From a virus (Duplodnaviria; Heunggongvirae; Uroviricota; Caudoviricetes): a stretch of 35,750 nucleotides of DNA. Location: positions 78,839 through 114,588 of IMG/VR virus record IMGVR_UViG_3300044614_000224; one strand, written 5' to 3'. A program made the translations under genes and the position numbers. This document shows positions 1,896 to 35,748 of this stretch, piece after piece. The notes below the pieces were generated by a model. It worked only from the letters and a program-made list of their open reading frames with translations. It was not told the DNA's origin and made no database searches. The first letter of the stretch is position 1, and each line of letters opens with the position of its first letter.

Positions 1896-2074
1896 TGGAA
1901 AAGAAAGAATTTATAAAAGATAAACATTACTACTTGGATGGGGATAGAGTTGTATTTACAGCTCTGTTCCTCACCCAACGTGGTGAATGTTGTGCAAACG
2001 GGTGTAAGAACTGCCCATATACCAAACCAAGAAAAAAAGGTAATACTCTTCTAGAAGAAGAGAAAAAAATATAG
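1895..2074 (+). CDS. 59-aa Cys-cluster protein (DUF5522-like), not in the ORF track
   Basis: Manual translation: MEKKEFIKDKHYYLDGDRVVFTALFLTQRGECCANGCKNCPYTKPRKKGNTLLEEEKKI. TAATG overlap with the nrdJ stop. The FT..FL..RG.CC..GC..CPY pattern is as I recall for DUF5522. Confidence 0.8.
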   Translation: MEKKEFIKDKHYYLDGDRVVFTALFLTQRGECCANGCKNCPYTKPRKKGNTLLEEEKKI

Positions 2075-2101
2075 TGTTCTGTGTTCTGTTTTGATTATGA
2101 A

Positions 2102-2140
2102 AGCCCTGGTATATCTATACTGGGGCTATTTTTTTATTTT
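2102..2140 (+). terminator. Rho-independent terminator after nrdJ and the Cys-cluster gene
   Basis: 11-bp stem agccctggtat / atactggggct (two G-U pairs), 4-nt loop, followed by a long T tract. Confidence 0.8.
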
Positions 2141-2160
2141 TTATTTTGTAAAGTTATTCG

Positions 2161-2168
2161 TAAATTTG
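2161..2168 (+). promoter_or_regulatory. Bacteroidota-type -7 element (TAAATTTG) upstream of recA
   Basis: TAnnTTTG ending 22 nt before the ATG at 2191. No TTTG at the canonical -33 spacing. Confidence 0.5.
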
Positions 2169-2190
2169 TATCTATAAAAAACCAACAATT

Positions 2191-3225
2191 ATGGCAAAAG
2201 CAAAGGAAACCTCAGAGGGCAAAAGTAAATATCAAGAAGCCCTTGAGAAATTAAACAAAGCTTATGGTGTAGGAACAATCCTAACACTAGAAAGCAAAAC
2301 AGATGGTGCATATGAAATTATCAGTACGGGGAGTATTGGTTTTGATTACATCACATTGGGAACTGGAGGATTTGTAAAAGGTAAGATGTATGAACTAATG
2401 GGTTGGGAAGGCTCAGGTAAGTCTACAATCTGTGGACATGCTGTAGCAGAATGTCAAAAGAAGGGAGGCACTGTATTATATATAGATGGCGAGCATGCTG
2501 TTGATAAGCAATACTTCCAAGCTCTAGGTGTAGATACTACCAAGATGTTAATTGCTCAACCATCATGTGGTGAGGAAGGTTTTAACATTGCTATGGAAAT
2601 GATTCAAACAGGAGATGTTGATCTTGTTATCATTGACTCAGATTCATCATTAATTCCTAAGAAACAATTAGATGGTGATGTAGGTGATAGCACTATCGGT
2701 TACAAAGCTAGATTGAATAGCAATGCATATCCAAAACTAAAAGGTGCCCTATCACAACATAATGTATGTGTTATTGTCGTAAGTCAATATCGTGAGAAGA
2801 TTGGTGTTATGTTTGGTAACCCTACCACAACTCAGGGTGGACATGCATTGAAGTTCTACACTGATGTAAGAATAGAGGTGAGCAAGAGCTTAGCTAAGGA
2901 AGGTGATGTAAACTACGGTAATATTACCAAGGTGAAAGCTGTAAAGAACAAGATGAGTTCTCCTTATAAGCTACATGCATTTGATATTGTATATGGTGAG
3001 GGTATTGATAAGGTGGGTGAGATTATGGAGCTTCTTAATGAGTTTGAACTTGGTAGGAAGTATGGTAAGACATTCACATTCAATGAGACAAAGTACGATC
3101 TTGAAGAGTTTAAAGCTATGTTGTTAGACAACGAAGAGTTTTACAATGAAATCAAGACTAGCATTATTAACAAGATTAACCAAACTGAAATTAAAACTGA
3201 AGAAGATGTTACAAGTGAAATTTAA
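2191..3225 (+). CDS. recA: RecA recombinase
   Basis: ISTGSIGFD, Walker A GWEGSGKST, YIDGEHAVD, Walker B LVIIDS, SQYREKIGVMFGNPTTTQGGHALKFY. Confidence 0.96.
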   Translation: MAKAKETSEGKSKYQEALEKLNKAYGVGTILTLESKTDGAYEIISTGSIGFDYITLGTGGFVKGKMYELMGWEGSGKSTICGHAVAECQKKGGTVLYIDGEHAVDKQYFQALGVDTTKMLIAQPSCGEEGFNIAMEMIQTGDVDLVIIDSDSSLIPKKQLDGDVGDSTIGYKARLNSNAYPKLKGALSQHNVCVIVVSQYREKIGVMFGNPTTTQGGHALKFYTDVRIEVSKSLAKEGDVNYGNITKVKAVKNKMSSPYKLHAFDIVYGEGIDKVGEIMELLNEFELGRKYGKTFTFNETKYDLEEFKAMLLDNEEFYNEIKTSIINKINQTEIKTEEDVTSEI

Positions 3226-3658
3226 AAAGATCTCTGACAACACTATCGTTCCCTCTAGAGGAAGTTTAGATGCAGCATGTTATGATGTATATGCACATTC
3301 TATTGTGCATAAAGATGACGGTAAGGTTGTTGTTGGTTTAGGGTTTAAAACAGAAATCCCTGTAGGTTACAAAGCTGTGTTAGTACCTCGTAGTAACTTA
3401 ACTAAACACAACTGGGTAATGAACAACTCTATAGGTATCATTGATGCTGACTATAGAGGAGAATGGATGTGTGTGTTCACACGATTAGAATTTAATACAT
3501 CAAGTGGAGGAACTGTACAAGACTTCCCTTATGCTGTAGGTGATAGAGTGGCACAGTTCTATCTAGATGAGGTGTATAACATCGCATTCTTAGAAGTGAC
3601 AGCCCTATCAGATACAAATAGAGGTGAAGGTGGATTTGGTTCTACAGGATTAAAATAA
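3206..3658 (+). CDS. dut: Trimeric dUTPase
   Basis: Motifs AACYD, PRSNL, GIIDADYRGE, RVAQ, RGEGGFGSTG. The likely start is ATG 3206 (MLQVKFKK), not 3146. Confidence 0.93.
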   Translation: MLQVKFKKISDNTIVPSRGSLDAACYDVYAHSIVHKDDGKVVVGLGFKTEIPVGYKAVLVPRSNLTKHNWVMNNSIGIIDADYRGEWMCVFTRLEFNTSSGGTVQDFPYAVGDRVAQFYLDEVYNIAFLEVTALSDTNRGEGGFGSTGLK

Positions 3659-19831: not shown

Positions 19832-20449
19832 TTAAACTAATAATCCGTGATATTCTTTGAAATGTTTGATACGATCAGCTAAGCCAATTGTACCACCATT
19901 AACACGTTTAGTAATCTTAGTAACTACAGCATCAGAAGTACCTTCGTCTGCTATTTTATTCAATCCATTCTTGCTCCAGAACCAAGCTGCAGACAGTAAT
20001 GCATACTGTGTACCAACTAGATTAGGATCTGCATCAGGGCCTAGGCCTATTGATTTGAAGAATGCTGTGTAGTTATCTTTACCAGTTAACTGGATTGCTC
20101 CTCTTCCACGAAACTTATAACCATCTCCTGATGCTTCAGGACCATTACCCATACGTCCACCATATACAAGATTGGCAATCTTTTCAGGCTTCTTAGCATA
20201 GGCTAAAGCTTTAGGTTCATCAACTGTACCATCAGCTCTTTTAAAATACTTTTTAAATATACCTGTCAATCCTTTAGCAGAGTAGTTGAGGTTCTCTTGG
20301 AACACCTTGAATCCACCACTCTCATGTCCTGTTTGAGCTAGGAAATGAGCAAGACGTGCTGGAGTGTTTATTTGGAATTTCTCCATCACCTCAGGTATCT
20401 TGTCTAATATGCTGTCAGGAATATGTCCTTTCAAATTATTTAACGTCAT
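19832..20449 (-). CDS. GH19-family endolysin
   Basis: RLAHFLAQTGHESGGF, ENLNYS, YKFRGRGAIQLTGKDNY, SAAWFW, TKRVNGGTIGLADR. Confidence 0.92.
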   Translation of the reverse strand: MTLNNLKGHIPDSILDKIPEVMEKFQINTPARLAHFLAQTGHESGGFKVFQENLNYSAKGLTGIFKKYFKRADGTVDEPKALAYAKKPEKIANLVYGGRMGNGPEASGDGYKFRGRGAIQLTGKDNYTAFFKSIGLGPDADPNLVGTQYALLSAAWFWSKNGLNKIADEGTSDAVVTKITKRVNGGTIGLADRIKHFKEYHGLLV

Positions 20450-22044: not shown

Positions 22045-22413
22045 CTAGTAGGGTTGGTAGGACTTTTCCTCTATAAACTCAGAACCATACTTCATATTAA
22101 TTTCTTTCTTAATACGTGCTCGCTTGTCATTCAATAAGTAAACACTCCTAGCTAGCTGAACAAAGTAGTCATCAAAAACCTTGTTTCTCTCACAATCTCT
22201 GAGTCTATCCTCTACATCCCAGAGCTTTTTATTCACCCAGAGTAGCTCATCTGTCAAAGAATCATGTACTATCTCTGGAGGAATCACTCCAGTGAGGTAG
22301 GTTCTCTCCTTAAACACGTTGGTAAGCTTATCTTTATCTTGTATATTCAAAGCTTTGATAGATAGGATGGTCCATTTGTCTACCACTTCTCCTATAGAAA
22401 CTTCTATTTGCAT
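22045..22413 (-). CDS. DUF6165-like protein
   Basis: MQIEVSIGEVVDKWTILSIK...LWDVEDRLR...F...ARSVY..ND.RA..K..IN...GS...EEKSY. Start moved to ATG 22413. Confidence 0.72.
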   Translation of the reverse strand: MQIEVSIGEVVDKWTILSIKALNIQDKDKLTNVFKERTYLTGVIPPEIVHDSLTDELLWVNKKLWDVEDRLRDCERNKVFDDYFVQLARSVYLLNDKRARIKKEINMKYGSEFIEEKSYQPY

Positions 22414-22423
22414 ATTAAAAGTG

Positions 22424-22454
22424 TTTGATATTCCACACAAATATAGTAATTTTG
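22424..22454 (+). promoter_or_regulatory. Bacteroidota sigma-A-type promoter for the 1128-aa fusion gene
   Basis: TTTG-N19-TAATTTTG, 18 nt before the ATG at 22473. Confidence 0.7.
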
Positions 22455-22472: not shown

Positions 22473-25400
22473 ATGCCCAACAGTTATACATATTTTAAGC
22501 AAGAGGTAAAGGAGTGGTTCAGGGATAATGTTCCTGCTAACACAAAGGTGTTAGACGTAGGTCCTGGACAGGGTACATATGGTAAGCTTTTATTTGAACT
22601 TGGGTATGCCATAGATGCTGTTGAGGTGTGGGACCCTTACATTAGTGAGTATAAACTGTGGGAGTATTATGGTAATGTACATATTGCTGATATACGTGAG
22701 TTTGATTGGTCTGAGTATGAGTTCATCATCCTAGGAGATGTGTTAGAACATTTGACAGCTGAAGAAGGACAGAAGCTCATCACTGATATTGCCATGGCTA
22801 GGAAGCAATATTTGGTTGCTATTCCCTATATGATGGAGCAAGATGGTGAGGAGTATGGTAATACATATGAGACCCACCTGCAAGCAGACCTTACAAAGGA
22901 TGTGATGGCAGAACGCTATCCTACACTAGACCTACTCTATGCAAATGATTACTATGGGTATTATGTAAGTAAGAAGATAGCAGACAAAGCATTTGTACTA
23001 TATGCCACAGAAGCCTATTATGATATTGTGACAGCCTGTGTTAAGTCACTCACTACATTCAGTCAGTATCCAGTGTTTGTATACATGCTTAACTCTGACA
23101 AGAAGGTACCTAGAGCTACAACTATCAGGTGGAACTGTGATATAGATCCAATAGAATACAATACCAAAGAACAGTTTTATATCAATAGAACAGATGATAG
23201 GGTATATAATATTCTTATACAGCGTCCACTGATTGTTATAGACTGTCTGAAGTATGCTGACACTGTAATGTATGTAGACAGTGACAGTATTGCTACACCT
23301 TTTGTAGACAGAGTATTTAACTATCCTGTCTCTGAGTATCCCTTGTTTACATCTAGCATCTATGACCAGATGTTTCTGAATGGAAAAGGAGACCTTGAGA
23401 AACCTATTTGTGATCTATTAGATATACAGAGAGGCAGATATATACAAACAGGATACTTCCTAGCCAATAGAGATTGTCTACCATTCTTACAAGAGTGGGC
23501 TAGCTTATGCACTGACTCAAGAGTGATGAGTGATTTCAAACTGTATGCTCCCTTCCACGAAGAGACATTAGCTAACGCAACACTTTGGAAGAATGATTAT
23601 AACAAATCTCTACCACTCATCTATACTAATGCTAGCTTGGATGTACTAGAGAACATAGATAAATATGAGTTTGGTAAAGAGCATTGGGAATGGTTTAAAC
23701 TACCTGATAGTAAGCATGAGTTATTCTTCTACCATGGAGAGAAGAGACCAGATGTAATGTACAAGATGATTAGCAGATTGAAAGGTAATAAGAGAGTGTT
23801 GTTCCTAGCTCCTCATCTATCAACAGGTGGTATGCCTGCGTTCCTATTAAAGAGAATACAGGAGATAAAAGATCATGTAGAGATATATGTAGTCGAGTAT
23901 CAATGCCACAGCTTAGACTTTGTTGTACAGCGTAATGCAATCAAAGAGATTGTAGGATCTAACTTCACTACACTGTATGAGAACAAGATGGAACTGTTTG
24001 ATATTATTGATAGCTGGAAGCCAGACATCATTCATCTAGATGAACCTGCTGAAAGATATAACAGAGAGATGATTACTAAGTTGTATGATACAAACAGATC
24101 ATACAAGATTGTAGAGACATTCCATGATGTAGCATTCAAGCCTGAAGAAAAGATATTCCAATCAGAAGCATACGCATTCTGTACACCATACCACCTCAAC
24201 AAGTTTACAAACTTACAGGGATATAGAAAGGTGATTGAGTTTCCTTTAGAGGATAAAAGACCAAGTATTTTAGGTAAGATAGAAGCTAAGAACAAGTTGG
24301 GATTTGCACCATTTAAGACTAGTGTTGTAAATGTAGGACTGTGGACTCCAGGTAAGAACCAAGCAGAGGGAATTGAAATAGCTAAGAAGTATCCTCACAT
24401 GGATTTCTATTTTGTAGGTAACCAAGCAGGCAACTTCAAAGATTACTGGGAACCATTAATGGAATTCCTACCAAAGAATGTATATGTTCTAGGAGAGAAG
24501 AGTAATGTAGAAGACTACTTAACAGCTGCAGATATATTCATGTTCAACAGCACATGGGAATGCAATCCTCTTGTACTTAGAGAAGCCATCAGCTATGCAC
24601 TACCTGTTGTAGCTAGAAACCTACCACAGTATGAAGATATGTTTACTAAGTATCTCCTACCTATAGATAGTAATCTGGATGAAGTGTGTGATGAATACAG
24701 AAATGGAATTGTTCATTACCGTATACCAGATGTAACATTTAAACAAGACTACATAGACTTCTACAATCATGTAGACCCTATTTCTCTACAGTCACAAGAT
24801 GTAACCATCACACAGCATTACATAGTTAATCCATTCCTTGAGATAACAGGTGTGAGTGATAGTGATTTCAAGATAGAATTCTACGATGAGCAGGATGTAT
24901 GTCACTACAGTAGTGTGATCAAAACCAACCAGTGGGTAAAGCTAAACAGAAGCTATTACACTAAATGGAGAAACAAGATATGGCAAGATGGCAATCTCAT
25001 ACACGACTACACACTAGACTATACAGACAAGACTGTCTTCATCTACTTTGATAGTGAGAGTCTTGGAGATACAATTGCATGGATGCCATACTGTTTAGAG
25101 TTTAAGAAGAAGCACAACTGTCATGTTGTTGTAAGCACATATAAAAACTTCTTGTTTGAGAAGGCCTATCCAGAGCTTGAGTTTGTTGCACCTGGAACAC
25201 CTGTGAATGCTTATGGAGAATACATAATAGGTTGGAGATATAACACAGACCAAGAGCCTGAGTTGTGTAACACCATCCCTCTACAGAAAGCAGCTACTAA
25301 TATACTTGGACTAGAATACAAAGAAATAAGACCTAGGTTTGCTTTTACACCTACAACAATTGAGGATAGGTATGTAACTATTGCTACGAATAGTACAACA

Positions 25401-25859
25401 GGATGTAAGTTTTGGACTAAAGAAGGGTGGCAAGAAGTGATTAACTATCTTGTAAGTCAAGGATACAAAGTGTACAATGTATCTAAGGAAAGAAATCCAT
25501 TTGATAACTGTGTACAGATAGAAGATACATCAATGGATAACACCATCAATGTGATTTGGAACAGTAAGTTCTTTATAGGACTTAGTTCAGGATTAAGCTG
25601 GTTAGCTTGGATGATGGGTAAACAAGTGGTGATGATTTCTAACTTCACCAAAGCAGACCACGAGTTTCAATCCAATTGTATTAGAATTACAGATGAGACT
25701 GTATGCCATGGATGTTGGAACAATAAGAATTTTAAGTTTGATAGAGGAGACTGGAACTGGTGCCCTATCTGGAAGGGTTATGACAAACAGTTTGAATGCC
25801 ATAACACCATCACAGCAGATAAAGTTATAGCTTCCCTTCAGCCTTTAATTGTTCTCTAA
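22473..25859 (+). CDS. Four-domain fusion: SAM methyltransferase + GT-A (GT8-like) + GT4-like GT-B + TibC/AAH-type autotransporter heptosyltransferase
   Basis: VLDVGPGQG and ILGDVLEH (MTase); MYVDSD (GT-A); LFLAPHLSTGGMP, KNQ, ADIFMFNSTWECNPLVLREA (GT4); DSESLGDTIAW, FFIGLSSGLSWLAW and CHGC-x15-C-x11-C (AAH/TibC). Confidence 0.82.
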   Translation: MPNSYTYFKQEVKEWFRDNVPANTKVLDVGPGQGTYGKLLFELGYAIDAVEVWDPYISEYKLWEYYGNVHIADIREFDWSEYEFIILGDVLEHLTAEEGQKLITDIAMARKQYLVAIPYMMEQDGEEYGNTYETHLQADLTKDVMAERYPTLDLLYANDYYGYYVSKKIADKAFVLYATEAYYDIVTACVKSLTTFSQYPVFVYMLNSDKKVPRATTIRWNCDIDPIEYNTKEQFYINRTDDRVYNILIQRPLIVIDCLKYADTVMYVDSDSIATPFVDRVFNYPVSEYPLFTSSIYDQMFLNGKGDLEKPICDLLDIQRGRYIQTGYFLANRDCLPFLQEWASLCTDSRVMSDFKLYAPFHEETLANATLWKNDYNKSLPLIYTNASLDVLENIDKYEFGKEHWEWFKLPDSKHELFFYHGEKRPDVMYKMISRLKGNKRVLFLAPHLSTGGMPAFLLKRIQEIKDHVEIYVVEYQCHSLDFVVQRNAIKEIVGSNFTTLYENKMELFDIIDSWKPDIIHLDEPAERYNREMITKLYDTNRSYKIVETFHDVAFKPEEKIFQSEAYAFCTPYHLNKFTNLQGYRKVIEFPLEDKRPSILGKIEAKNKLGFAPFKTSVVNVGLWTPGKNQAEGIEIAKKYPHMDFYFVGNQAGNFKDYWEPLMEFLPKNVYVLGEKSNVEDYLTAADIFMFNSTWECNPLVLREAISYALPVVARNLPQYEDMFTKYLLPIDSNLDEVCDEYRNGIVHYRIPDVTFKQDYIDFYNHVDPISLQSQDVTITQHYIVNPFLEITGVSDSDFKIEFYDEQDVCHYSSVIKTNQWVKLNRSYYTKWRNKIWQDGNLIHDYTLDYTDKTVFIYFDSESLGDTIAWMPYCLEFKKKHNCHVVVSTYKNFLFEKAYPELEFVAPGTPVNAYGEYIIGWRYNTDQEPELCNTIPLQKAATNILGLEYKEIRPRFAFTPTTIEDRYVTIATNSTTGCKFWTKEGWQEVINYLVSQGYKVYNVSKERNPFDNCVQIEDTSMDNTINVIWNSKFFIGLSSGLSWLAWMMGKQVVMISNFTKADHEFQSNCIRITDETVCHGCWNNKNFKFDRGDWNWCPIWKGYDKQFECHNTITADKVIASLQPLIVL

Positions 25860-26211
25860 TTTGTGTAGCAGATATATCATGTATATCTTGAGGTGGTACA
25901 TGTTCTACAACATCATAACCAATACCTCTACCAATATTAACAGATTCAATATCAGGTATAATCATGAGTCTAACTCTTCCTTCCTCAATGAGATCCATTA
26001 ATTCTTCTGTTAGATTCATCATAACTTGCCATGCAGACCAAGGATTCTTCTCATCAGGAGTAACATCTCTTACACAGAGAAGAACATTCTTACCTTCATT
26101 TAATTTCTGATCAATCAACCATCTGTGACCAGGATGCCATGGTTGCCATCTTCCTATGAACATAGCATAACCACTTCCATTACCATTACCTTTTGCTAGA
26201 ATATTCTGCAT
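25825..26211 (-). CDS. Minimal HxGH nucleotidyltransferase (cytidylyltransferase-like superfamily)
   Basis: FIGRWQPWHPGH and C-terminal DISATQIR. Confidence 0.8.
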   Translation of the reverse strand: MQNILAKGNGNGSGYAMFIGRWQPWHPGHRWLIDQKLNEGKNVLLCVRDVTPDEKNPWSAWQVMMNLTEELMDLIEEGRVRLMIIPDIESVNIGRGIGYDVVEHVPPQDIHDISATQIREQLKAEGKL

Positions 26212-26633
26212 ACATATTTGATTTTATCTACACTGTCTTCAATAGAAGTGTTAGATGTATTAATAATTAAATCTACATCATCTTTCTGTGGTGGTTCAAA
26301 GTCTGCCACTTTAAATTGATCTCTACCTCTATCTTCTTCATATGTGAGATAGATCCATTTAACATCTCTGGTTAGACTGCTTAGGTACTCTCTAGCTTCT
26401 TCATAAGGATACACTAGTGATAACACTATGTTATAGTTTCTTGCTTTATTCAAATAGTAAGCAATGTCACTAGCTCTGTTTAAGTTTTTAATCCTACCTT
26501 CTTTACTGTAGTCTTTGTTCTTAAACATATCTCTTAGTTCATCACCATCTATGTGGTGAAATCCCTCTGCTATAAATTTTTTAGCAAGAGTTGTCTTGCC
26601 TGATGCAGGCTGTCCAAATAATACTATTATCAT
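26196..26633 (-). CDS. cysC: Adenylylsulfate (APS) kinase
   Basis: P-loop GQPASGKTT, IDGDELR, YSKEGRIKNL, VLSLVYPYEEAR, FEPP. Confidence 0.82.
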   Translation of the reverse strand: MIIVLFGQPASGKTTLAKKFIAEGFHHIDGDELRDMFKNKDYSKEGRIKNLNRASDIAYYLNKARNYNIVLSLVYPYEEAREYLSSLTRDVKWIYLTYEEDRGRDQFKVADFEPPQKDDVDLIINTSNTSIEDSVDKIKYVCRIF

Positions 26634-27448
26634 TTTGAATATCTAAATTGTTGAAAGAACCATTGATAGTTGTCCCATATCCAACCTGTAACATCCTTAC
26701 CTAATAAAGCTTTTGCTCTAGAAGGAACAGGTTCTAATCTAGTACGAATAGTGTGGTCACCAAAACTTCCATACACTTCATCATCTTCCTTAGTAACTTG
26801 TTCTATATTATCCCAATCATGTTGGTAATAAGGAATGCCTAGGTATTGATATATTCTTTGCATCTCTGTATCAGGGTAAAGACATAAGTCTTCAAACTTA
26901 ACAAACAATACATGTTTGTCTATTCCTAGTCTGAACATCTCTTGTAATCTTTCTATAGCTAATCCAACAGGTTGACTCTGTGCCCAGATGTCTATACGTT
27001 TAGGAACTGTTGTCCCAGTCATCTGTGCCCAGTTGAGAATAGCATTAGCCTTATCAGGATTCTTTCTGTAGTTGTTCTCCATAGAAGCAAAGACATCACG
27101 TAGGTCTCTCACCATACATATAATCTTTGGCTCTGGGTGAATGAAGTTTAGGAAGTCATAATGGATTCCCCATCCTCTAGATTTGTCTACAACATATTTC
27201 TTATCTGTAATAGCATTGTAATAAGCAATCATTCCTTCTTTGCAGAATGCTTGGAATGCAGCTTTCATCACTTGTGGATCTTGAGCTTGGAACTCAGGGC
27301 TGTCTGTATAGTTTCCTCTAGCAGCAAACACCAATTCAAGCACACCACTAGTTGGTGTAGCATAGATGTCTGGGTTTTGTGCTAATATGTTTTGTAACAA
27401 TGTTGAACCTGCTCTTGGTAAAGAGCTTTGATAGAATATATTCTCCAT
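26630..27448 (-). CDS. PAPS-dependent sulfotransferase
   Basis: 5'-PSB motif SLPRAGSTLL, DKSR, 3'-PB motif MVRDLRDVFAS, VKFEDL..P..EMQRIYQYLG. Confidence 0.88.
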   Translation of the reverse strand: MENIFYQSSLPRAGSTLLQNILAQNPDIYATPTSGVLELVFAARGNYTDSPEFQAQDPQVMKAAFQAFCKEGMIAYYNAITDKKYVVDKSRGWGIHYDFLNFIHPEPKIICMVRDLRDVFASMENNYRKNPDKANAILNWAQMTGTTVPKRIDIWAQSQPVGLAIERLQEMFRLGIDKHVLFVKFEDLCLYPDTEMQRIYQYLGIPYYQHDWDNIEQVTKEDDEVYGSFGDHTIRTRLEPVPSRAKALLGKDVTGWIWDNYQWFFQQFRYSK

Positions 27449-27449
27449 A

Positions 27450-28325
27450 TTAAGATTTTAAAGATGCTATGATTTGATCTACATTAAATATTTCTTTCTC
27501 ATTGTTATATGGAAACTCTAATAGGTTCCCTGATATATCAAACTTCTGCAAGTATGCGTTGCGTAACTCAGGCTTCTTAGTGAATGGATTACATACAATG
27601 TTATCATGTACATCATATCCAAACACCTCAGGCTTATTACACACCCATAGCACTGTAGAAGGTTTATTCATAGCAGCAGCTGCATGATGACCAAAGCTAT
27701 CCATTAACAATCTCTTACTACTAAGTTCTATAAGAACAGCAAGTGCTCTGAAGTTATCTGTAACAGGAGTGGTGAAGTCATAACCAATCTGATCTTCTCT
27801 TCTTATGTGTACAATGTTATAATCATTCTTAAATTCATGTATAACATTCTCCACTACATAACTAGGAATGTCTCTAGCCCATGAGTATTTCAACTCTTGT
27901 CCTGGAGCACCACCATTTGTTTGTAATAATAAAATAGGTCTGTCAGACGTAAACTTCTGACCAAAGAACTTACGTTCTCTATCTGTAAGATAGAGCTTAG
28001 GAGTAACATCTTCAGGTGTAGGAACACCAAACATTCTTGTCCATGTATGGCTTAAATGTTCATTCTGCATAAGATGTTCTGTCTGTACATATGGATCATG
28101 TGCAAACACCTTAAACTCTTTACCCTCTATAAAATCTTCATAGAAGTATTGTGTCATACCAAAAGAAAATGAGCGATACACAAAGGGGTTGTTTATAAAC
28201 ACCTCTGGGTAACCGCTCATTACAATTAATTGACTATCAGGATATTGTTTGTGAATTGCTTCACAAACAGATGTAGCAAGTATACACTTACCTATACCAC
28301 CATTGATTTGGAAAATGATATTCAT
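27450..28325 (-). CDS. GT9-like (GT-B) glycosyltransferase
   Basis: NGGIGKCILAT...IHKQYPDSQLIV, EVFINNP, LLMDSFGHHAAAAMNKPSTVLW. Confidence 0.7.
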   Translation of the reverse strand: MNIIFQINGGIGKCILATSVCEAIHKQYPDSQLIVMSGYPEVFINNPFVYRSFSFGMTQYFYEDFIEGKEFKVFAHDPYVQTEHLMQNEHLSHTWTRMFGVPTPEDVTPKLYLTDRERKFFGQKFTSDRPILLLQTNGGAPGQELKYSWARDIPSYVVENVIHEFKNDYNIVHIRREDQIGYDFTTPVTDNFRALAVLIELSSKRLLMDSFGHHAAAAMNKPSTVLWVCNKPEVFGYDVHDNIVCNPFTKKPELRNAYLQKFDISGNLLEFPYNNEKEIFNVDQIIASLKS

Positions 28326-28341
28326 AATTTAGCTTTACAAG

Positions 28342-28373
28342 CAAAGGTATACATTGCTTATAATAAAACCAAA
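28342..28373 (-). promoter_or_regulatory. Bacteroidota sigma-A-type promoter heading the GT9-sulfotransferase-cysC-HxGH operon
   Basis: TTTG-N20-TACCTTTG, 16 nt before the ATG at 28325. Confidence 0.8.
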
Positions 28374-28383
28374 TTATTTAACA

Positions 28384-28731
28384 TTATTCTTCAACAGCTG
28401 TAGTAGTAGTTGTGGTGGTTGTAGGACCAGCCAAAACAGCCTCAGCAAGATCTACAAAAGCTGTAGTATCTAAGTCTGCATACTGCACTCTGAAACTTTG
28501 TGCACCTTGTTGACTTGGTAGCCAATCAGAGAAAAGATCATAGAATGTGTTGATAGCATGGTACTCTTTAGGACCAGTGTAACCTTCTGGTTTGTTTGCC
28601 CATACATCATCTACGCAAGCGTCTACTAGAGCTTGGAAGTCAGAAACATTTGCCTGTACGTTTTGAGTATCAGTGATTACTTGCACTGTACCAAAGCCAA
28701 AGATGTGAAGTGTGTTAAATGGATTTGCCAT
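28384..28731 (-). CDS. Hypothetical protein with a C-terminal poly-Thr tract
   Basis: Ends GPTTTTTTTAVEE; A-rich start context. Confidence 0.7.
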   Translation of the reverse strand: MANPFNTLHIFGFGTVQVITDTQNVQANVSDFQALVDACVDDVWANKPEGYTGPKEYHAINTFYDLFSDWLPSQQGAQSFRVQYADLDTTAFVDLAEAVLAGPTTTTTTTTAVEE

Positions 28732-28777
28732 TGTTTATTGTTTTTTATTTTTGTAAAATTAATATTTTTATTGAAAT

Positions 28778-29260
28778 TTAACAAGGGAATATGCTAATAA
28801 TATTACCACTGTTGTCCACTTGATAACTATCAGACCCTGGTCCCTGAGAATACCATAAGTTTCCACCTGCTACAGGAGTTGTTCCACAACCACCTAATAC
28901 ATAAAGTACAGTAGGGAATAGAGCATTGTCTGTATCAAATAACGTTAAAGTATTAAAGTGGTCACATGGGTTTATATTTGCAGGATATAAGAAAATTTGC
29001 TGACAAGCTACTGTTGTTGTAGTGGTAGTTGTTGTTGGTGGGGGTTGTAGATTTGATTTTACCACCAATTGATTTGAAGCTTTTGATGCATAAGGACCAT
29101 AAGCTGTATCAATATATACATAATAATCAGCATCAGCTTTTGTAATCTGCTCTGTGCTTGCAGGTATGCTATTTTTTAATGCAAACACTCCTGTGGTTAC
29201 AGCATCCTGTAGGTTGTTAAAAGATATACATTGATTACTTGCTATACCTGCCCAACTCAT
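28778..29260 (-). CDS. Putative tail-associated protein with an internal Pro/Thr linker
   Basis: ATGA overlap with the fibre gene; PPPTTTTTTTT separates two small domains. Confidence 0.6.
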   Translation of the reverse strand: MSWAGIASNQCISFNNLQDAVTTGVFALKNSIPASTEQITKADADYYVYIDTAYGPYASKASNQLVVKSNLQPPPTTTTTTTTVACQQIFLYPANINPCDHFNTLTLFDTDNALFPTVLYVLGGCGTTPVAGGNLWYSQGPGSDSYQVDNSGNIISIFPC

Positions 29261-32200
29261 GATTCATATTTTTTAATTATGGCTTCTAATTTAGCTATCC
29301 TTTCTTCCAGTTTAGCTAATTTATAAGTGTTTACTTGGTTGTAATCTACTTGCTTATATCCTTCTATGTTATTGTGTACAGCGTTTGGAAGTATCTTTTC
29401 TACATCTTGAGCTATGTAACCATAACAAGATTTGTTTTCTTTATCTGATTTCCAACTGAAGTTAGCGAAGTTAATTCCATCATAAGCACTAAATGTATTG
29501 TGTACATTTTTAAGTCTGCAATCTGATGTTTCAAAGAAAGCTGTAGCAAACATACAAGATATAGCACAGAAGTTATTCCAATAGAATGTACTATTAGCAC
29601 TTCCTGTATAACAAACCCCACCACCACCTGAATATGCACCTGATACTGTAACATTTTTACCACCTAAAAGTGAAGAGTAGATTCCTGATGATGTGTTGTT
29701 ATTACCTCCTCCTACAAAAGAATGACATCCTGATGATGTATTAGAAAGACCACCACTTACAGTAGAGTAAAAATTTGATGCTATATTTCCACTACCTCCT
29801 CCAACAATAGAACAAGCTCCTGAAGCAGTGTTAGAAATACCACCTGCAACAACTGAATTTTGACCTGATGCAGTACCATATCTTCCACTAAATGTTCCTG
29901 ACCTAACTCCTGAAGCCACATTTTGTAATCCTCCTCCTACTACTGCATCATCCTGACCTGCACCATTGAGTCTACCCCCTCCTATAAATGAAAATGCTCC
30001 TGTTGCAACATGAGTCTCTCCACCTCCAATTGTAGATGATTGACCTGAAGCAGTGTTTACTATACCACCTGCAATAGTAGCCCAAGCTCCTGAAACAACG
30101 TTACCTTGACCACCTCCAATAGTTCCTCTACAACCTGCACTAATTTTATTTTGATAACCACCTGAGATTGTAGATGCATAGACACCACAAATACAGTTAT
30201 TATATCCTGCACCAATGAATGAATAATATCCTGAAACTGTATTACCATTTCCTCCAACCACTGCTGCTTTATATGGACCTGTTGCTATATTGTTATAACC
30301 TCCAACAACAACAGAACCTAGAGTAAGAGCAGAATTACCACATCCTCCACCTACAAAACCAAAAACATTAGTCGCACTATTACCTAGACCACCACCAACA
30401 AAACTACAAGCACCTGAAGCTGTATTCGTAGCACCACCTACAACAGTAGAAGCTACTCCTGTTGCATTATTTCCACTACCTCCTCCAACAACAGAACAAG
30501 CTCCCAATGCTCTTGCTGAAATACCACCTGATGCTGTTGCATAATCTGCACAAGCATAGACTTCTCTACCACCTGCTGCTATTGAAGCATATCCCACTGC
30601 TCTATTTCCACAACCACCTGCAATTGTAGAATGAGAACCTGAAGCAACGTTACTGCCTGCTCCTGCTCCTCCACCACCACCTATAAAACTACAAGCTCCT
30701 GAGGCAGTATTTAATTGACCACCACCTACAATAGCATGACCTCCTGAAGCTGTGTTAGTTTGACCACCTAAAACACTACTTACAATTCCTGAAGCTGTAT
30801 TATCATATCCGCCACTAATAGTAGAATAGTTACTATTTGCAGCGTTTGAATATCCCCCACTTACAGAGGATTGAAGTCCTAAAGCACGATTGTTAGAACC
30901 TGCTCCTATGAAAGCATAATTTCCTGAAGAAATATTAGTAATTCCTCCTACAATAGCTGAAATATAGCCTGAAGCTGTGTTAGAAGCACCGCCTGACACA
31001 GTAGAACAACCTCCTGAAGCTGTGTTAGCTCTACCCCCAACAACTGTTGACATAGCCCCTGATGCAACATTAAACCATCCACCACCTATAGTTGCTACAT
31101 ATCCTGAAGCTGTATTACCATATCCTCCTAATATAGAACTATAAAAGTTTGTTGAAGCAACGTTTTCTCTACCTCCTGCTACAGTTGAAAAACAAGAAGT
31201 AGCTTGGTTAGAACCTCCTCCTCCTATTGTTGAAGTATGTCCTGAAGCTATATTACCCCTTCCACCTCCAATTGTTGATTGTGCTTCTGTAGCCCTATTC
31301 TGAAATCCTCCTCCTATAAAAGAGTATTGACCTGCGTTACATACCGCAGGAGGAGATGTAAAATATCCAAATGCAGGATTGAATGTACCTCCTGTTGTAT
31401 TACCTCCAACACCACCTGCAATGGTAGCACCTGTTACACAACATTGAGCAACTGAACTACAAATATAGTTATATGAACCGCCACCAACTGTTGATACAAG
31501 ACCACCTGCTCTCCCACAATAACCTCCACTAACTGTACTTGCATAAGCAAGTGCTTGGTTTCTCCAACCTGCACCAATAAATGCGTATGAATTTGATGTT
31601 GTATTATTGTAACCGCCTCCAATAACTGACCAATTACCTGATGCTGTATGGGTATCTCCTCCACCTATAAAAGAACAGTTTCCTGAGGCTGTATTGCTAA
31701 TACCACCCCCAATATATGAACGTACACCTGAAGCAGTACTACCCCAAGACCATCCAACACCTGAAGCATAACCTGATGCTGTAGAAGAATATCCTTGTGC
31801 ACTTGAATTATATCCACAAGCTAAATTAAATGCTCCCCCAAAACTAGCTGTATATGTTGTTATTGCTCTATTACAATAGCCACCTGATATAACAGAAGAT
31901 GAACCTGAAGCAGTATTTGTAAAACCTCCACCTATTGTAGAACAAGCTCCTGAAGCTGTGTTTATAAATCCACCTGAAACTGTAGAAGAATCGCCTGATG
32001 ATACGTTTGCATATCCTCCTGATATTGTTGCAAAAGTTGCACAAGCTCTGTTGTTTCTACCACCTCCTACTGTAGAGTTAGTAGAATTAGCTACGTTTAC
32101 GCATCCTCCACCAATAAAAGAAAATGCTCCTGAAGCTGTGTTACTTTGACCACCGCCAACTGTTGAAACACCACCTGACGCAATGTTTGATGCACCACCT

Positions 32201-35200
32201 GAAATTATTGATTCAGTTCCTGAAGCTGTATTAAAACTACCACTCAAAGAACCTGCATAGTTTCCTGATGCATTGTTTGCAAAACCTGCTGCTACAGAAG
32301 TATAACCACTTGCTATTGAACCACAACCTCCTGCAACAGTTGCATAACATCCACTTGCAAAGTTAATTCTGCCACCTGACACAACTGCCATATACCCTGT
32401 AGTACAGTTGTCATATCCACCACCAATTGTTGAATATTGATTTACTGCATTATTATATAATCCTCCTGATACAGTAGAACCATAATTTTCTACAGTATTA
32501 TAATATCCACCACTTAATGTACCATACTCAGCAGCCACAAATATATTATTACATTTACCGCCACCTAAAAAAGAATGACCACTTGCTACTACGTTGATTT
32601 GACCCCCTCCAATAATACTACAACTACCTGAAACTGAATTAGACTGCCCACCACCTATTGTAGTTGCACAAGCCAAAGCACAGTTTAAATATCCTCCACC
32701 TACAGTTGCATGAGTTGCTGTTGCTGTATTACTTCTTCCACCTGAAACAGTAGACCTATATGCTGAAGCTGTATTTGCAAGTCCACCTCCCACTGTTGCA
32801 TCATCTGAAGTGGCACTATTTTGTCTACCACCACCAACAGTTGTTGTAAATCCTGTAGCTGCATTTGAAAGACCTCCTGATACAACTGTATAGTTATTAG
32901 ATGCTGTATTGCTTTGACCGCCTGAAATAGTGGCTGCATATCCTGATGCTGTATTTGATACACCACCACCCACAGTACTTCTTGTATTGGTCGCACAGTT
33001 AGACCAACCTCCTGATACAGTTGCTATTGTTCCTGAAGAAATATTCAAGCAACCACCTCCTACAGTAGAAGCAAAACCTGTTGCTCTGTTTTGAAATCCC
33101 CCTCCTATAAATGATAAACGTCCTGCTGCATAAAATGCAGTTGGAGGATTATTAAATCTACAACCATTCCAAGTACCACCTGATGTATTGTTTCCAACTC
33201 CACCTGCTATTGTTGCACCTGCTGAACAGATGTCTGCTGTTGCATTACATATAAAGTTGCAAAGACCACCACCAATAGTAGCGTTAGTATTTATTACACA
33301 GTTTTTATAACCTCCTGATACTGTTGAACCATAAGCTGAAGAAGTGTTTGATGAACCTCCACCTACTAAAGCATATCTTCCTGATGCTGTGTTATAACTA
33401 CCACCACCAACTGTTGAATATAGTCCTGAAGATGTATTCAGAAGCCCTCCTACTACAATTGACCTATTATTATTAGCAGTATTACAATTACCACCTCCAA
33501 TAAATGACCAAGCTCCTGAAGCTACGTTTTGTTGACCGCCACCTATTGTTGAACAATTGGCTGATGCAACATTTGATATACCTGCCCCAACAAAAGCCCT
33601 TTCTCCACATGCCCTGTTAGAATTTCCACCAACTATTGCTGATTCTAACGCAGATGCAACATTACCATATCCACTACTTACTGTAGTTCTTGTATTACAA
33701 GCAACATTACCAGCACCACCACCTACAAAAGATCCTGAACCTGAAGCTGTGTTAGATGCTCCTGCAACAACTGCTGCATAACCACCACTTGCTGTGTTAT
33801 TATTTCCTCCTCCTACAAATGAGCCATATCCACTTGCTGTTGCTGCTCTACCACCTGCTACTGAACAAGCACCTGATGCTGTGTTTGATAAACCTCCAAC
33901 AACTGTTGACTGACCACCTGAAGCAGTATTAGCTTGTCCACCTGCTACAGTTGCTCTTGTATTGTTTGCTGTATTACCATTACCACCACCTACTGTTGAT
34001 TGAAGTCCTGATGCTGTATTATTTCTACCTCCACCTACAACTGTTGAATCACAAGAAGAAATATTAAAATAGCCACCTCCTATAAATGATAAATATGCTG
34101 ATGCTGTATTATCATAACCACCGCTAATTGTTGAATAATTACCACTAGCTAAATTGCTACAACCCCCTCCTATTGTAGAACAACCTCCTGAAGCTGTGTT
34201 AGATACACCTCCTCCTACAAAAGAACGACCACCTGATGCAGTATTACTTTGTCCACCTGCTACTGTAGAATTAGTAGCACTTGAAACGTTATATGAACCG
34301 CTTACTGTTGAAGCACCACCTGACGCTGTATTATTTCTACCACCGCCAACAAAGTTGAAATTGCTTGTACTTAAATTAGCATAACCACCTGTTATATTAG
34401 CATAATATCCATTACTTATTGTGTTGCTTTGACCACCGCCAATAGTGCTTATAAGACCATTTGAGCAAATTAAGTTTCCTGAACCACCTGCTATTGTATT
34501 AAATATTGCTAAAGCTCTATTGTTTTCACCACCTCCCACTGTAGAACAGTTTCCTGATGCAGTATTAGTTAAGCCACCACTTACAGTTGCTCTTGCTCCT
34601 GAAGCAGTGTTTTGTTGACCACCACCAACTGTTGACATATAGCCACTAGCTGTATGTAAATAACCACCACTCACTGTAGAGCAGTTACCAGATGCTGTGT
34701 TGCACCTACCTCCTCCTATTGTAGATGAATATCCTGATGCTGTATTTATATTACCACCTGATGCGGTTGCAAAAGGCTTAGATGCTGCATTAGAACCACC
34801 ACCACCTATAAAAGTATAACATCCTGAAGCATTATTTCCACCACCACCACCTACAATTGCACCTTCTCCTGTAGCTCTACTATTATTACCACCTAATACA
34901 CTTGCGTAGATAACTGTAGCACAGTTAAGTCTACCACCTGCCACTGTTGAGTTTTGTGCGATAGCACAGTTTAGATACCCTCCACTTACTGTACTTGTTA
35001 TACCTGTTGCCCTATTGCTTACACCTCCTCCAACAGAAGAATAAGTGCTACTTGAAGTATTACCTTGACCACCAGCTACTACAGAAGCATACCCTGACGC
35101 TGTATTTGTTCTACCGCCTCCTATTGTACTCCATAGTCCTGATCCTGCATTCCCTTGTCCTCCACCTACAAAAGAACAAGCACCTGATGCTATGTTTGAT

Positions 35201-35748
35201 AAACCTCCAACAACTGTTGACTGACCACCTGAAGCAGTATTAGAAGAACCTCCACCAACTGTTGCAAATGAAGCTGAGGCAATATTAAGGCGACCACCTG
35301 AAATTGTTGCAGCACAACAACCTGTAACACTATTACCTGCTCCACCACCAATAAAATTTATTTTACCTGCTGTTATACCATTTACTTCTCCCCCTCCAAT
35401 AGTATTTGAATAAGCTCCTGACGCTGTATTTTTATATCCTCCTGATACAGTAGAATATCCTGTTGAGGCAAAGTTACAAACACCTCCTCCTACAAATGTA
35501 TATATTGATGAAGAAATGTTCCCACTACCACCTCCTACAAAAGAACAAGCACCTGAAGCTGTATTTGAGCATCCTCCACCAACAAAAGAACGAGTACCTG
35601 AAGCAGCATTACCTATACCATTTCCTACAAAAGAATAATCTCCTGAAGCAACATTATTTACACCTGTTCCTATAAAAGATACGTTACCATTTGCTGTATT
35701 TGCACCACCATTACCTATGAAAGCATAATAAGTACCACTTGCTGTGTT
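29257..35748 (-). CDS. Giant repeat fibre/adhesin with a C-terminal peptidase S74 intramolecular chaperone; 5'-truncated by the window (at least 2163 aa)
   Basis: I checked codon by codon: no stop from 34945 to the window end, so the track's GTG start is internal. More than 100 15-aa repeats (N.ASG..ST[VI][GS]GG..). C-terminal ETSDCRLK, YGYIAQDVEKILPNAV, VDY and a terminal coiled coil. Confidence 0.88.
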   Translation of the reverse strand, partial: NTASGTYYAFIGNGGANTANGNVSFIGTGVNNVASGDYSFVGNGIGNAASGTRSFVGGGCSNTASGACSFVGGGSGNISSSIYTFVGGGVCNFASTGYSTVSGGYKNTASGAYSNTIGGGEVNGITAGKINFIGGGAGNSVTGCCAATISGGRLNIASASFATVGGGSSNTASGGQSTVVGGLSNIASGACSFVGGGQGNAGSGLWSTIGGGRTNTASGYASVVAGGQGNTSSSTYSSVGGGVSNRATGITSTVSGGYLNCAIAQNSTVAGGRLNCATVIYASVLGGNNSRATGEGAIVGGGGGNNASGCYTFIGGGGSNAASKPFATASGGNINTASGYSSTIGGGRCNTASGNCSTVSGGYLHTASGYMSTVGGGQQNTASGARATVSGGLTNTASGNCSTVGGGENNRALAIFNTIAGGSGNLICSNGLISTIGGGQSNTISNGYYANITGGYANLSTSNFNFVGGGRNNTASGGASTVSGSYNVSSATNSTVAGGQSNTASGGRSFVGGGVSNTASGGCSTIGGGCSNLASGNYSTISGGYDNTASAYLSFIGGGYFNISSCDSTVVGGGRNNTASGLQSTVGGGNGNTANNTRATVAGGQANTASGGQSTVVGGLSNTASGACSVAGGRAATASGYGSFVGGGNNNTASGGYAAVVAGASNTASGSGSFVGGGAGNVACNTRTTVSSGYGNVASALESAIVGGNSNRACGERAFVGAGISNVASANCSTIGGGQQNVASGAWSFIGGGNCNTANNNRSIVVGGLLNTSSGLYSTVGGGSYNTASGRYALVGGGSSNTSSAYGSTVSGGYKNCVINTNATIGGGLCNFICNATADICSAGATIAGGVGNNTSGGTWNGCRFNNPPTAFYAAGRLSFIGGGFQNRATGFASTVGGGCLNISSGTIATVSGGWSNCATNTRSTVGGGVSNTASGYAATISGGQSNTASNNYTVVSGGLSNAATGFTTTVGGGRQNSATSDDATVGGGLANTASAYRSTVSGGRSNTATATHATVGGGYLNCALACATTIGGGQSNSVSGSCSIIGGGQINVVASGHSFLGGGKCNNIFVAAEYGTLSGGYYNTVENYGSTVSGGLYNNAVNQYSTIGGGYDNCTTGYMAVVSGGRINFASGCYATVAGGCGSIASGYTSVAAGFANNASGNYAGSLSGSFNTASGTESIISGGASNIASGGVSTVGGGQSNTASGAFSFIGGGCVNVANSTNSTVGGGRNNRACATFATISGGYANVSSGDSSTVSGGFINTASGACSTIGGGFTNTASGSSSVISGGYCNRAITTYTASFGGAFNLACGYNSSAQGYSSTASGYASGVGWSWGSTASGVRSYIGGGISNTASGNCSFIGGGDTHTASGNWSVIGGGYNNTTSNSYAFIGAGWRNQALAYASTVSGGYCGRAGGLVSTVGGGSYNYICSSVAQCCVTGATIAGGVGGNTTGGTFNPAFGYFTSPPAVCNAGQYSFIGGGFQNRATEAQSTIGGGRGNIASGHTSTIGGGGSNQATSCFSTVAGGRENVASTNFYSSILGGYGNTASGYVATIGGGWFNVASGAMSTVVGGRANTASGGCSTVSGGASNTASGYISAIVGGITNISSGNYAFIGAGSNNRALGLQSSVSGGYSNAANSNYSTISGGYDNTASGIVSSVLGGQTNTASGGHAIVGGGQLNTASGACSFIGGGGGAGAGSNVASGSHSTIAGGCGNRAVGYASIAAGGREVYACADYATASGGISARALGACSVVGGGSGNNATGVASTVVGGATNTASGACSFVGGGLGNSATNVFGFVGGGCGNSALTLGSVVVGGYNNIATGPYKAAVVGGNGNTVSGYYSFIGAGYNNCICGVYASTISGGYQNKISAGCRGTIGGGQGNVVSGAWATIAGGIVNTASGQSSTIGGGETHVATGAFSFIGGGRLNGAGQDDAVVGGGLQNVASGVRSGTFSGRYGTASGQNSVVAGGISNTASGACSIVGGGSGNIASNFYSTVSGGLSNTSSGCHSFVGGGNNNTSSGIYSSLLGGKNVTVSGAYSGGGGVCYTGSANSTFYWNNFCAISCMFATAFFETSDCRLKNVHNTFSAYDGINFANFSWKSDKENKSCYGYIAQDVEKILPNAVHNNIEGYKQVDYNQVNTYKLAKLEERIAKLEAIIKKYES
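33863..33932. repeat. 70-bp near-identical direct repeat, copy A, inside the fibre gene
   Basis: 69/70 identical to 35174-35243 by manual alignment. Confidence 0.85.
35174..35243. repeat. 70-bp near-identical direct repeat, copy B, inside the fibre gene
   Basis: 69/70 identical to 33863-33932; the single difference is G33881 vs A35192. Confidence 0.85.

Follow-up and report, generated by a model that had tools for sequence, protein, structure and literature searches.

TibC and AAH, the bacterial autotransporter heptosyltransferases (BAHT) of Escherichia coli, heptosylate serines of the autotransporters TibA and AIDA-I, respectively. TibC modifies serine and not threonine, contains an iron-finger (1Fe-0S) formed by Cys-339, Cys-342, Cys-358 and Cys-370, and builds its dodecamer through a β-hairpin thumb (PMC4358343). 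Its Arg-286 contacts N1 of adenine and is needed for both activity and ADP specificity. A second point of comparison is offered by the collagen-like tracts of bacterial proteins, which have been reviewed as rich in proline and threonine and as rarely glycosylated, with BclA being the exception (PMC8968730). In BclA and BclA3 the hydroxy-amino acids are O-glycosylated, and the sugar is thought to aid hydration and stability of a triple helix that is free of hydroxyproline (PMC8968730, PMC7157674). Here we describe a phage locus that bears likenesses to both systems. It encodes a 1128-residue, four-domain enzyme with a TibC/AAH-type domain and, near to it, a giant fibre. The locus lies in what we call the window, that is the whole stretch of 35,750 nucleotides (nt) analysed, which forms the last 35.7 kb (positions 78,839 to 114,588) of the 114,588-bp IMG/VR record IMGVR_UViG_3300044614_000224 (Caudoviricetes). 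We consider it probable, from sequence comparisons, that the enzyme glycosylates the phage's own 3288-residue fibre, mainly at serines of its collagen-like tracts, and that the sugar is subsequently lengthened and receives methyl and sulfate groups. A TibC/AAH-family enzyme would thus be paired with a new class of partner, a candidate collagen-like phage fibre; full-text searches of the literature returned no paper in which the TibC/AAH family is connected with phages or with collagen-like proteins.

The record has 127-bp direct terminal repeats at its ends and the window has a GC content of ∼36%. A megablast search with 11 kb of the window gave no match among GenBank phages. The open reading frame (ORF) of the enzyme is on the plus strand (22473..25859), and the protein has four putative glycan-assembly domains. 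The C-terminal domain (amino acids (aa) 795-1122, 24855..25838, plus strand) is a genuine member of the TibC/AAH family of protein O-glycosyltransferases. TIGR04414, the "autotransporter strand-loop-strand O-heptosyltransferase" profile, matches it with 248.1 bits (250.9 bits in a genome search), above the curated cut-off of 200 bits, and the C-terminal third of the enzyme matches the TibC structures 4RAP and 4RB4 with an E-value of 1.8e-48. An AlphaFold2 (AF2) model of the domain, built from 18 phage homologues, has a pLDDT of 87 and superposes on 4RAP with a template-modelling (TM) score of 0.90 and a root-mean-square deviation (rmsd) of 2.4 Å. It shows the fold of the TibC protomer, with a β-barrel, a GT-B core and an iron-finger insertion. 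The next-best folds are the GT9 lipopolysaccharide (LPS) heptosyltransferases WaaC and WaaF, at TM ∼0.5, and the GT9 profile PF01075 also matches the domain.

The residues expected of a TibC-like enzyme are in place. The SLGD motif occupies aa 863-866 (nt 25059-25070), and its Asp-866 aligns with the catalytic Asp-110 of TibC; the 4RB4 chain, a D110A mutant, has alanine in exactly this column. GLSSGLSW follows at aa 1036-1043 (nt 25578-25601). The cysteines of a C-x2-C-x15-C-x11-C pattern (C1078, C1081, C1097 and C1109; aa 1078-1109, nt 25704-25799) match the four iron-finger cysteines of TibC column for column and with equal spacing in the alignment to 4RAP, and the segment is a predicted iron-finger by that alignment. 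A sequence-only reading of the window had pointed to these two motifs and to four cysteines spaced +3/+16/+12, had given the TibC residue numbers, and had named a TIGR04414 hit and superposition on TibC as checks. The motifs are where it placed them, its residue numbers agree with the published ones (PMC4358343) and with the 4RAP alignment, and both checks came out in its favour.

In a tree of 113 TibC-like domains, a deep split (SH-aLRT 99) separates a classical, autotransporter-linked clade of 28 sequences from the clade of 85 to which the window's enzyme belongs, and makes the latter clade sister to the classical one. TibC Asp-110, the ADP-heptose-binding residues Thr-226, Lys-230 and Trp-305, and the four cysteines all align in the enzyme and are invariant or nearly so over the 113 homologues; the catalytic aspartate is kept in 113/113, and Asp-110, Lys-230, Trp-305 and the four cysteines are common to both clades. 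The family is large, with 878 cluster representatives at E ≤ 1e-30 that are mostly multidomain. We confirmed 166 loci in IMG/VR, in which the domain always lies within multidomain proteins of 700-1500 aa. Scanning 185,579 species genomes gave 55 loci.

The fibre gene runs on the minus strand (29257-35748, stop codon 29257-29259) and leaves the window at its end, so that the window holds the C-terminal 2163 of 3288 aa. Its frame stays open through the 127-bp terminal repeat that joins the ends of the record and continues at record positions 3-3500, also on the minus strand. The join is not an artefact, because the same architecture is found as a single uninterrupted ORF in two close relatives (loci L003 and L005). 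A domain of 325 aa, common to many related phages, lies at the N-terminus. Collagen-like tracts follow, from aa 329 to 649 and from aa 821 to 1072, with a globular insert between the two. In all, this part (aa 329-1072) comprises seven tracts of 10-43 triplets, with 186 Gly-X-Y triplets and not a single proline, and its sequence makes the fibre a candidate collagen-like protein. The X position is threonine in 71% and serine in 25% of triplets, and the Y position is serine in 69% and threonine in 13%. The tracts are encoded at record positions ∼285-2516, outside the window.

Most of the part inside the window (29614..35748, minus strand) consists of 15-residue left-handed β-roll repeats that extend over ∼2050-2100 aa, their period being evident from autocorrelation. 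There are ∼140 repeats with the consensus S-T-V-G-G-G-x-x-N-T-A-S-G-x-x. Sequence matches were obtained to the head domain of UspA1, a trimeric autotransporter (PDB 3PR7, E 2.6e-26), and also to 3ULT, a grass antifreeze β-roll, and to PF21300. The chain ends in a Peptidase_S74 intramolecular chaperone and self-cleaving domain (29374..29526, minus strand; aa 2075-2125 of the window part; PF13884, 30.9 bits against a cut-off of 22). From stop codon to stop codon, fibre and enzyme lie 3.4 kb apart, the distance given by the sequence-only reading, and the genes between them are on the strand of the fibre.

Comparison across phages shows that the enzyme co-varies with proline-free collagen-like Gly-[TS]-[ST] tracts and not with SGG β-roll repeats. 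Most of 80 enzyme loci contain, in the 10 kb to either side, a convergent giant ORF of Gly-[TS]-[ST] triplets, with up to 920 triplets and up to 58% serine plus threonine. At L070-L078, for example, a two-domain GT4 plus TibC-like enzyme of 705 aa adjoins a 3122-aa fibre with ∼850 GSS/GTS triplets, small globular inserts and no β-roll. When whole records were searched for collagen-like runs, defined as at least 15 consecutive Gly-X-Y triplets, such runs were found in 39 of 50 enzyme-bearing phage records, including all eight near-complete ones (at least 90% complete); the 11 records without them are fragments of 6-35% completeness. The triplet pattern reads identically backwards, so a reversed-pattern control is uninformative, and enzyme-negative relatives served as the control instead. 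No collagen-like run was found anywhere in the 15 enzyme-negative relatives searched (0/15), nine of which are at least 90% complete. Overall, the tracts occur in 12/12 near-complete records that have the enzyme and in 0/9 relatives that lack it.

The same relation holds within the phage family defined by the N-terminal domain of the fibre, for which 39 records were available. Collagen-like tracts are present in all nine enzyme-positive records and in only one of the 30 enzyme-negative ones, on a contig that stops ∼1 kb past the fibre. The closest relatives of the window's phage by fibre N-terminus (84% identity) have neither the tracts nor the enzyme, and on a tree of the N-terminal domain both traits switch together three times.

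These comparisons also bear on which part of the fibre would be modified. The sequence-only reading had proposed that the SGG repeats are the acceptor, with the TibC-like domain heptosylating the SGG-loop serines of the β-roll much as AAH and TibC act on AIDA-I and TibA, and it had suggested the co-occurrence of such domains with SGG fibres as a test. Its eye count of about 30 SGG motifs was close: the window part of the fibre has 37, of which 19 occur as [ST][VI]SGG, and 63 loops of the wider form [ST]-x-[VI]-[SG]-G-G. Both motifs are enriched in the repeat region, where 37 SGG compare with 16.6 ± 3.5 in shuffled sequences and 71 occurrences of the wider motif with 3.5 ± 1.8. Moreover, TibC modifies TibA at Ser-313 (QNSGG) and Ser-322 (NTSAA), contexts that resemble the S-G-G and N-T-A-S-G turns of the fibre (PMC4358343), and the family member BimC is paired with BimA, a YadA-like trimeric autotransporter with the head type of the fibre repeats (PMC11499645). 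However, BimC is reported to work by binding the membrane domain of BimA, rather than by any glycosylation that has been shown (PMC11499645). The repeats are themselves, by sequence, of the UspA1/YadA head type with a 15-residue period, and not of the 19-residue AIDA/TibA type; a motif search found neither NSGG nor VxNSGG in them.

The distribution of the β-roll argues further against it as the acceptor. Within 10 kb on either side of the enzyme, a β-roll fibre is found in only ∼14/80 loci. β-roll repeats are present in only eight of the 50 enzyme-bearing records and in only two of the eight near-complete ones, which shows that phages carrying an AAH-type domain generally lack such fibres, and every enzyme-bearing record that has the repeats has collagen-like tracts too. 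Fibres that combine both features (L083, L084, L093 and L094) have the enzyme nearby. Conversely, where β-roll fibres come without collagen-like tracts (L085-L092), the enzyme is missing from the flank and from the record as a whole; one such record has a completeness of 86%. Likewise, within the N-terminal-domain family only 2/9 enzyme-positive records have β-roll repeats, and an enzyme-negative record of 91% completeness carries them. We therefore regard the SGG loops as an unlikely principal target. The broader proposal of the sequence-only reading, that the phage glycosylates its own fibre, is the one we judge most plausible, from the co-variation of the enzyme with the collagen-like tracts of the fibre.

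The association is not restricted to a single group of phages. On the 113-sequence tree, with neighbours counted within the fetched flank of each locus, the window's clade has a collagen-like neighbour in 38/85 cases and an AIDA-type neighbour in none (0/85), whereas the classical clade has SGG-rich neighbours in 13/28 cases and collagen-like ones in none (0/28). Members from Acetobacteraceae, Trinickia, Selenomonadaceae and Citrobacter rodentium lie directly upstream of SGG-rich proteins, and none of them has a collagen-like neighbour; the protein next to the C. rodentium gene bears the annotation "AIDA repeat-containing protein". Among independent phage lineages, the cultured Microcystis phage Mel-JY01 carries, at a distance of 1.7 kb upstream from the TibC-like gene, an open frame of 1016 aa that includes 202 GTS/GSS triplets, and in the 735-kb megaphage LR756501 a 29-triplet ORF lies 3.6 kb from the TibC-like gene. 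Phage-like TibC domains also occur on contigs of metagenome-assembled genomes (MAGs) assigned to Sediminibacterium, Chitinophaga, Bacteroides, Lentimicrobiaceae, Schekmanbacteria (GC 66%), Thermoplasmatales and Nitrosotalea, and many of these contigs have GSS/GTS collagen-like ORFs beside the TibC-like gene.

Two of these loci have further features. The triplet frame of Mel-JY01 (PP395634.1; L082:2-3049) is unannotated, and two minus-strand 'hypothetical protein' coding sequences, probably antisense miscalls, are laid over it; the frame is open right up to the start of the record and may continue from the opposite end. A MAG contig labelled Bacteroides (L151:4503-13566) has separate genes for a sulfotransferase, a GT9 enzyme, two GT4 enzymes, a stand-alone TibC-like protein and a carbamoyltransferase, and three collagen-like ORFs come after this glycan gene set. 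The carbamoyltransferase hints at carbamoylation as a further modification of the glycan.

The three domains that precede the TibC-like domain, all on the plus strand, suggest how a sugar could be elaborated. An S-adenosylmethionine (SAM) methyltransferase domain is indicated at ∼aa 1-170 by weak matches to methyltransferase Pfam families at aa 21-107. It is followed by a retaining-type GT-A domain (aa 171-450, 22983..23822), for which a Pfam search gave no match. The AF2 model of this domain (pLDDT 89) resembles the fold of retaining GT6/GT8-type α-Gal/GalNAc transferases, with Foldseek matches to GT6 enzymes in the PDB at E ∼3e-8 and TM ∼0.5. Its conserved D-S-D (DxD) motif has D99 and D101 invariant in an alignment of related domains. 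A GT4-type GT-B domain occupies ∼aa 450-780 (PF00534 at aa 604-726). This domain order is repeated in 42 related loci, and shorter versions are found in 43. In three database proteins (P0003, P0017 and P0021), three to four stretches per chain match the TibC-like profile and may represent tandem TibC-like domains.

The functional reading that we favour, glycosylation of the fibre by the enzyme, can be set out as a series of steps. The TibC-like domain would prime O-glycosylation of serine in the cytoplasm, while the fibre chains are still nascent or unfolded and have yet to trimerise. The chief acceptors would be the Y-position serines of the proline-free collagen-like tracts, which places the main acceptor most likely in the part of the fibre gene beyond the window end. 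The activity of TibC on serine but not on threonine fits the Ser-rich Y position, which is mostly serine in all lineages with the pairing. Lengthening of the sugar would fall to the GT4 domain, the GT-A domain and perhaps a GT9-like ORF encoded nearby; the N-terminal methyltransferase would methylate it, and a sulfotransferase fed by an APS (adenylyl-sulfate)-kinase/nucleotidyltransferase pair would sulfate it. Domains of the S74 family drive trimerisation and cleave themselves, and that of the fibre would act afterwards, driving trimerisation and then cleaving itself off. The SGG β-roll may serve as an additional acceptor, for which there is no comparative support. By homology the donor would be ADP-heptose or, given the loss of Arg-286, perhaps a sugar activated with another nucleotide. 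The putative hosts, for which MAG contigs suggest Chitinophagaceae, could supply activated heptose, since MAGs with near-identical contigs carry gmhA and rfaE-II.

Several observations weigh against this reading. The residue equivalent to Arg-286 of TibC is threonine in this enzyme and in 65/85 members of its clade. The column holds arginine in 28/28 classical members and is non-arginine in 82/85 of the window's clade (threonine, valine, alanine or isoleucine in 80/85, arginine in only three), and the donor may therefore not be ADP-heptose. All classical members have a thumb region of 41 aa, that of the window's enzyme being 31 aa, with gaps of 4+2+4 residues in the alignment to 4RAP; the deletion of this 10-residue β-hairpin thumb means that the processive ring mechanism is not simply transferable. 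Known TibC substrates are β-helices and not collagen-like chains. Searches for gmhA, rfaE-I and rfaE-II found none of them in the phage genome, and gmhA was found in none of 50 related records. The enzyme is also present in the 636-kb megaphage LR756504.1, where no collagen-like ORF lies in the 20 kb to each side of it. Co-occurrence cannot single out, among the fused transferase domains, the one that acts on protein, and the independent contrasts within the phage family amount to two to three pairs, which go in the predicted direction without the sign test being significant. The TibC-like ORF of LR756504.1 (L204) is a standalone protein of 389 aa.

Two other targets have been considered, and we hold each to be improbable to a greater degree than the SGG loops. 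The enzyme could act on the host, on the LPS core or on a surface protein, and thereby block superinfection or alter receptors. Phages commonly encode glycosyltransferases that modify the host, this phage depends on host sugar nucleotides, and the domain is related to the GT9 LPS heptosyltransferases (PF01075; WaaC and WaaF structures). It is, however, far nearer to the protein-modifying TibC than to these LPS enzymes by the TM scores given above, and a host target leaves unexplained why the enzyme gene co-varies so strictly with genes for collagen-like fibres and why the two lie tail to tail across diverse viruses and MAG contigs. Equally doubtful is glycosylation of other virion proteins, such as a capsid decoration or a Ser/Thr-rich protein, with the fibre link reflecting a shared late-gene neighbourhood: some enzyme loci do have 1000-aa proteins with 30% serine plus threonine upstream and no collagen-like gene nearby, but such records (e.g. 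G049, G066, G067 and G072) still contain collagen-like runs elsewhere, and relatives that have the same gene order without a collagen-like tract are also without the enzyme.

The genes between enzyme and fibre, all on the minus strand, are consistent with further modification of a glycan. Three ORFs (25825-27448) form a compact predicted sulfation module. The first (25825..26211) encodes a small nucleotidyltransferase-fold protein of 128 aa, matched weakly by PF01467, by the C-terminal half of phrog_10255 and by TIGR00125 (26 bits), and is a candidate minimal ATP sulfurylase. The second (26196..26633) encodes an APS-kinase-like P-loop kinase (PF01583, 35.6 bits; NF004041, E 2e-11), and the two ORFs occur fused in other phages (phrog_10255). 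The third (26630..27448) encodes a predicted carbohydrate-type sulfotransferase (PF13469, 73.7 bits) that is NoeE-like (E 1.8e-11). Sulfation genes accompany the enzyme in ∼22/83 related phage loci, and a sulfotransferase is also present in L151.

Next to the module lies a divergent ORF of 291 aa (27450..28325) that is probably a GT9-like glycosyltransferase of the heptosyltransferase fold, an assignment to be taken as a lead only. It matches phrog_8954 and, by BLASTP, the GT9 protein of L151 (E 4e-6), and among its sequence-atlas neighbours are clusters in which 45% of the proteins carry PF01075; Pfam and NCBIfam searches gave no direct match. Its N-terminal motif reads G-I-G-K where GT9 enzymes have G-D, and the protein may be without the usual GT9 catalytic aspartate. 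Two small ORFs of 115 and 160 aa (28384-28731 and 28778-29260, together 28384..29260) lie directly downstream of the fibre gene. Neither has a family match in Pfam, NCBIfam or phrog, and they recur in 8/83 and 10/83 related loci, respectively. On the other side, upstream of the enzyme gene and divergent from it, is a gene for a DUF6165 protein (22045-22440), with homologues in 30/83 enzyme-bearing phage loci and on two MAG contigs. A GH19 endolysin of the chitinase class I fold, with a strong match to phrog_181, is encoded at 19832-20449.

A wider evolutionary scenario can be offered more tentatively. A branch of the TibC/AAH family, comprising at least several hundred clusters at 50% identity that are mostly viral, may have switched from β-helical autotransporters to proline-free collagen-like chains. 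Dense O-glycosylation of Y-position serines might then replace hydroxyproline in holding the triple helix, and the methylated and sulfated glycan might form an anionic coat on the fibre that shapes host recognition or environmental stickiness. We regard this scenario as possible but speculative. If the pairing is indeed functional, protein O-heptosylation, so far a virulence speciality of few Proteobacteria, would become a widespread form of virion decoration in environmental phages. These would also be the first enzyme candidates for glycosylating proline-free collagen-like chains of the bacterial world, which would explain how such chains fold, and they would open a route to designer collagen-like fibres coated with glycans that are possibly sulfated.

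Among known systems, the chlorovirus PBCV-1 A064R-type and mycobacteriophage enzymes are multidomain transferases that glycosylate virion proteins in the cytoplasm with host sugar nucleotides. The locus resembles the A064R type in that one viral polypeptide combines several transferase domains with a methyltransferase, and differs from both in transferase families, acceptor proteins and hosts; no TibC-type priming domain or sulfation module is known from either. The fibre is like UspA1 and YadA heads in its 15-residue repeats, which match 3PR7, and like trimeric phage fibres and spikes in its C-terminal S74 chaperone. It differs from UspA1 and YadA in its extreme length, in the two collagen-like tracts within the chain and in having no membrane anchor.

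With BclA and BclA3 of the Bacillus and Clostridioides exosporium, the locus shares a filament of collagen-like Gly-X-Y triplets and a transferase encoded nearby, e.g. SgtA (PMC8968730, PMC7157674). In contrast to the proline-free phage fibre with its mostly serine Y position, BclA tracts are Gly-Pro-Thr with threonine as the acceptor; the transferases belong to unrelated families, and one filament lies on a spore surface, the other on a phage. The closest likeness is to TibC-TibA and AAH-AIDA-I. It extends over the fold, including the N-terminal β-barrel, the catalytic residues and the spacing of the four cysteines, to a serine at the AAH stereoselectivity position, and to the adjacency of the gene to that of a very large, repetitive, Ser-rich protein, the presumed substrate. 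Unlike TibC and AAH, which stand alone, the phage enzyme has its domain fused behind three others, and it belongs to a separate deep clade, with Arg-286 replaced by threonine and the 10-residue thumb hairpin deleted. Its partner is a virion fibre of collagen-like and YadA-head repeats, in place of a type Va autotransporter whose AIDA repeats are 19 residues long.

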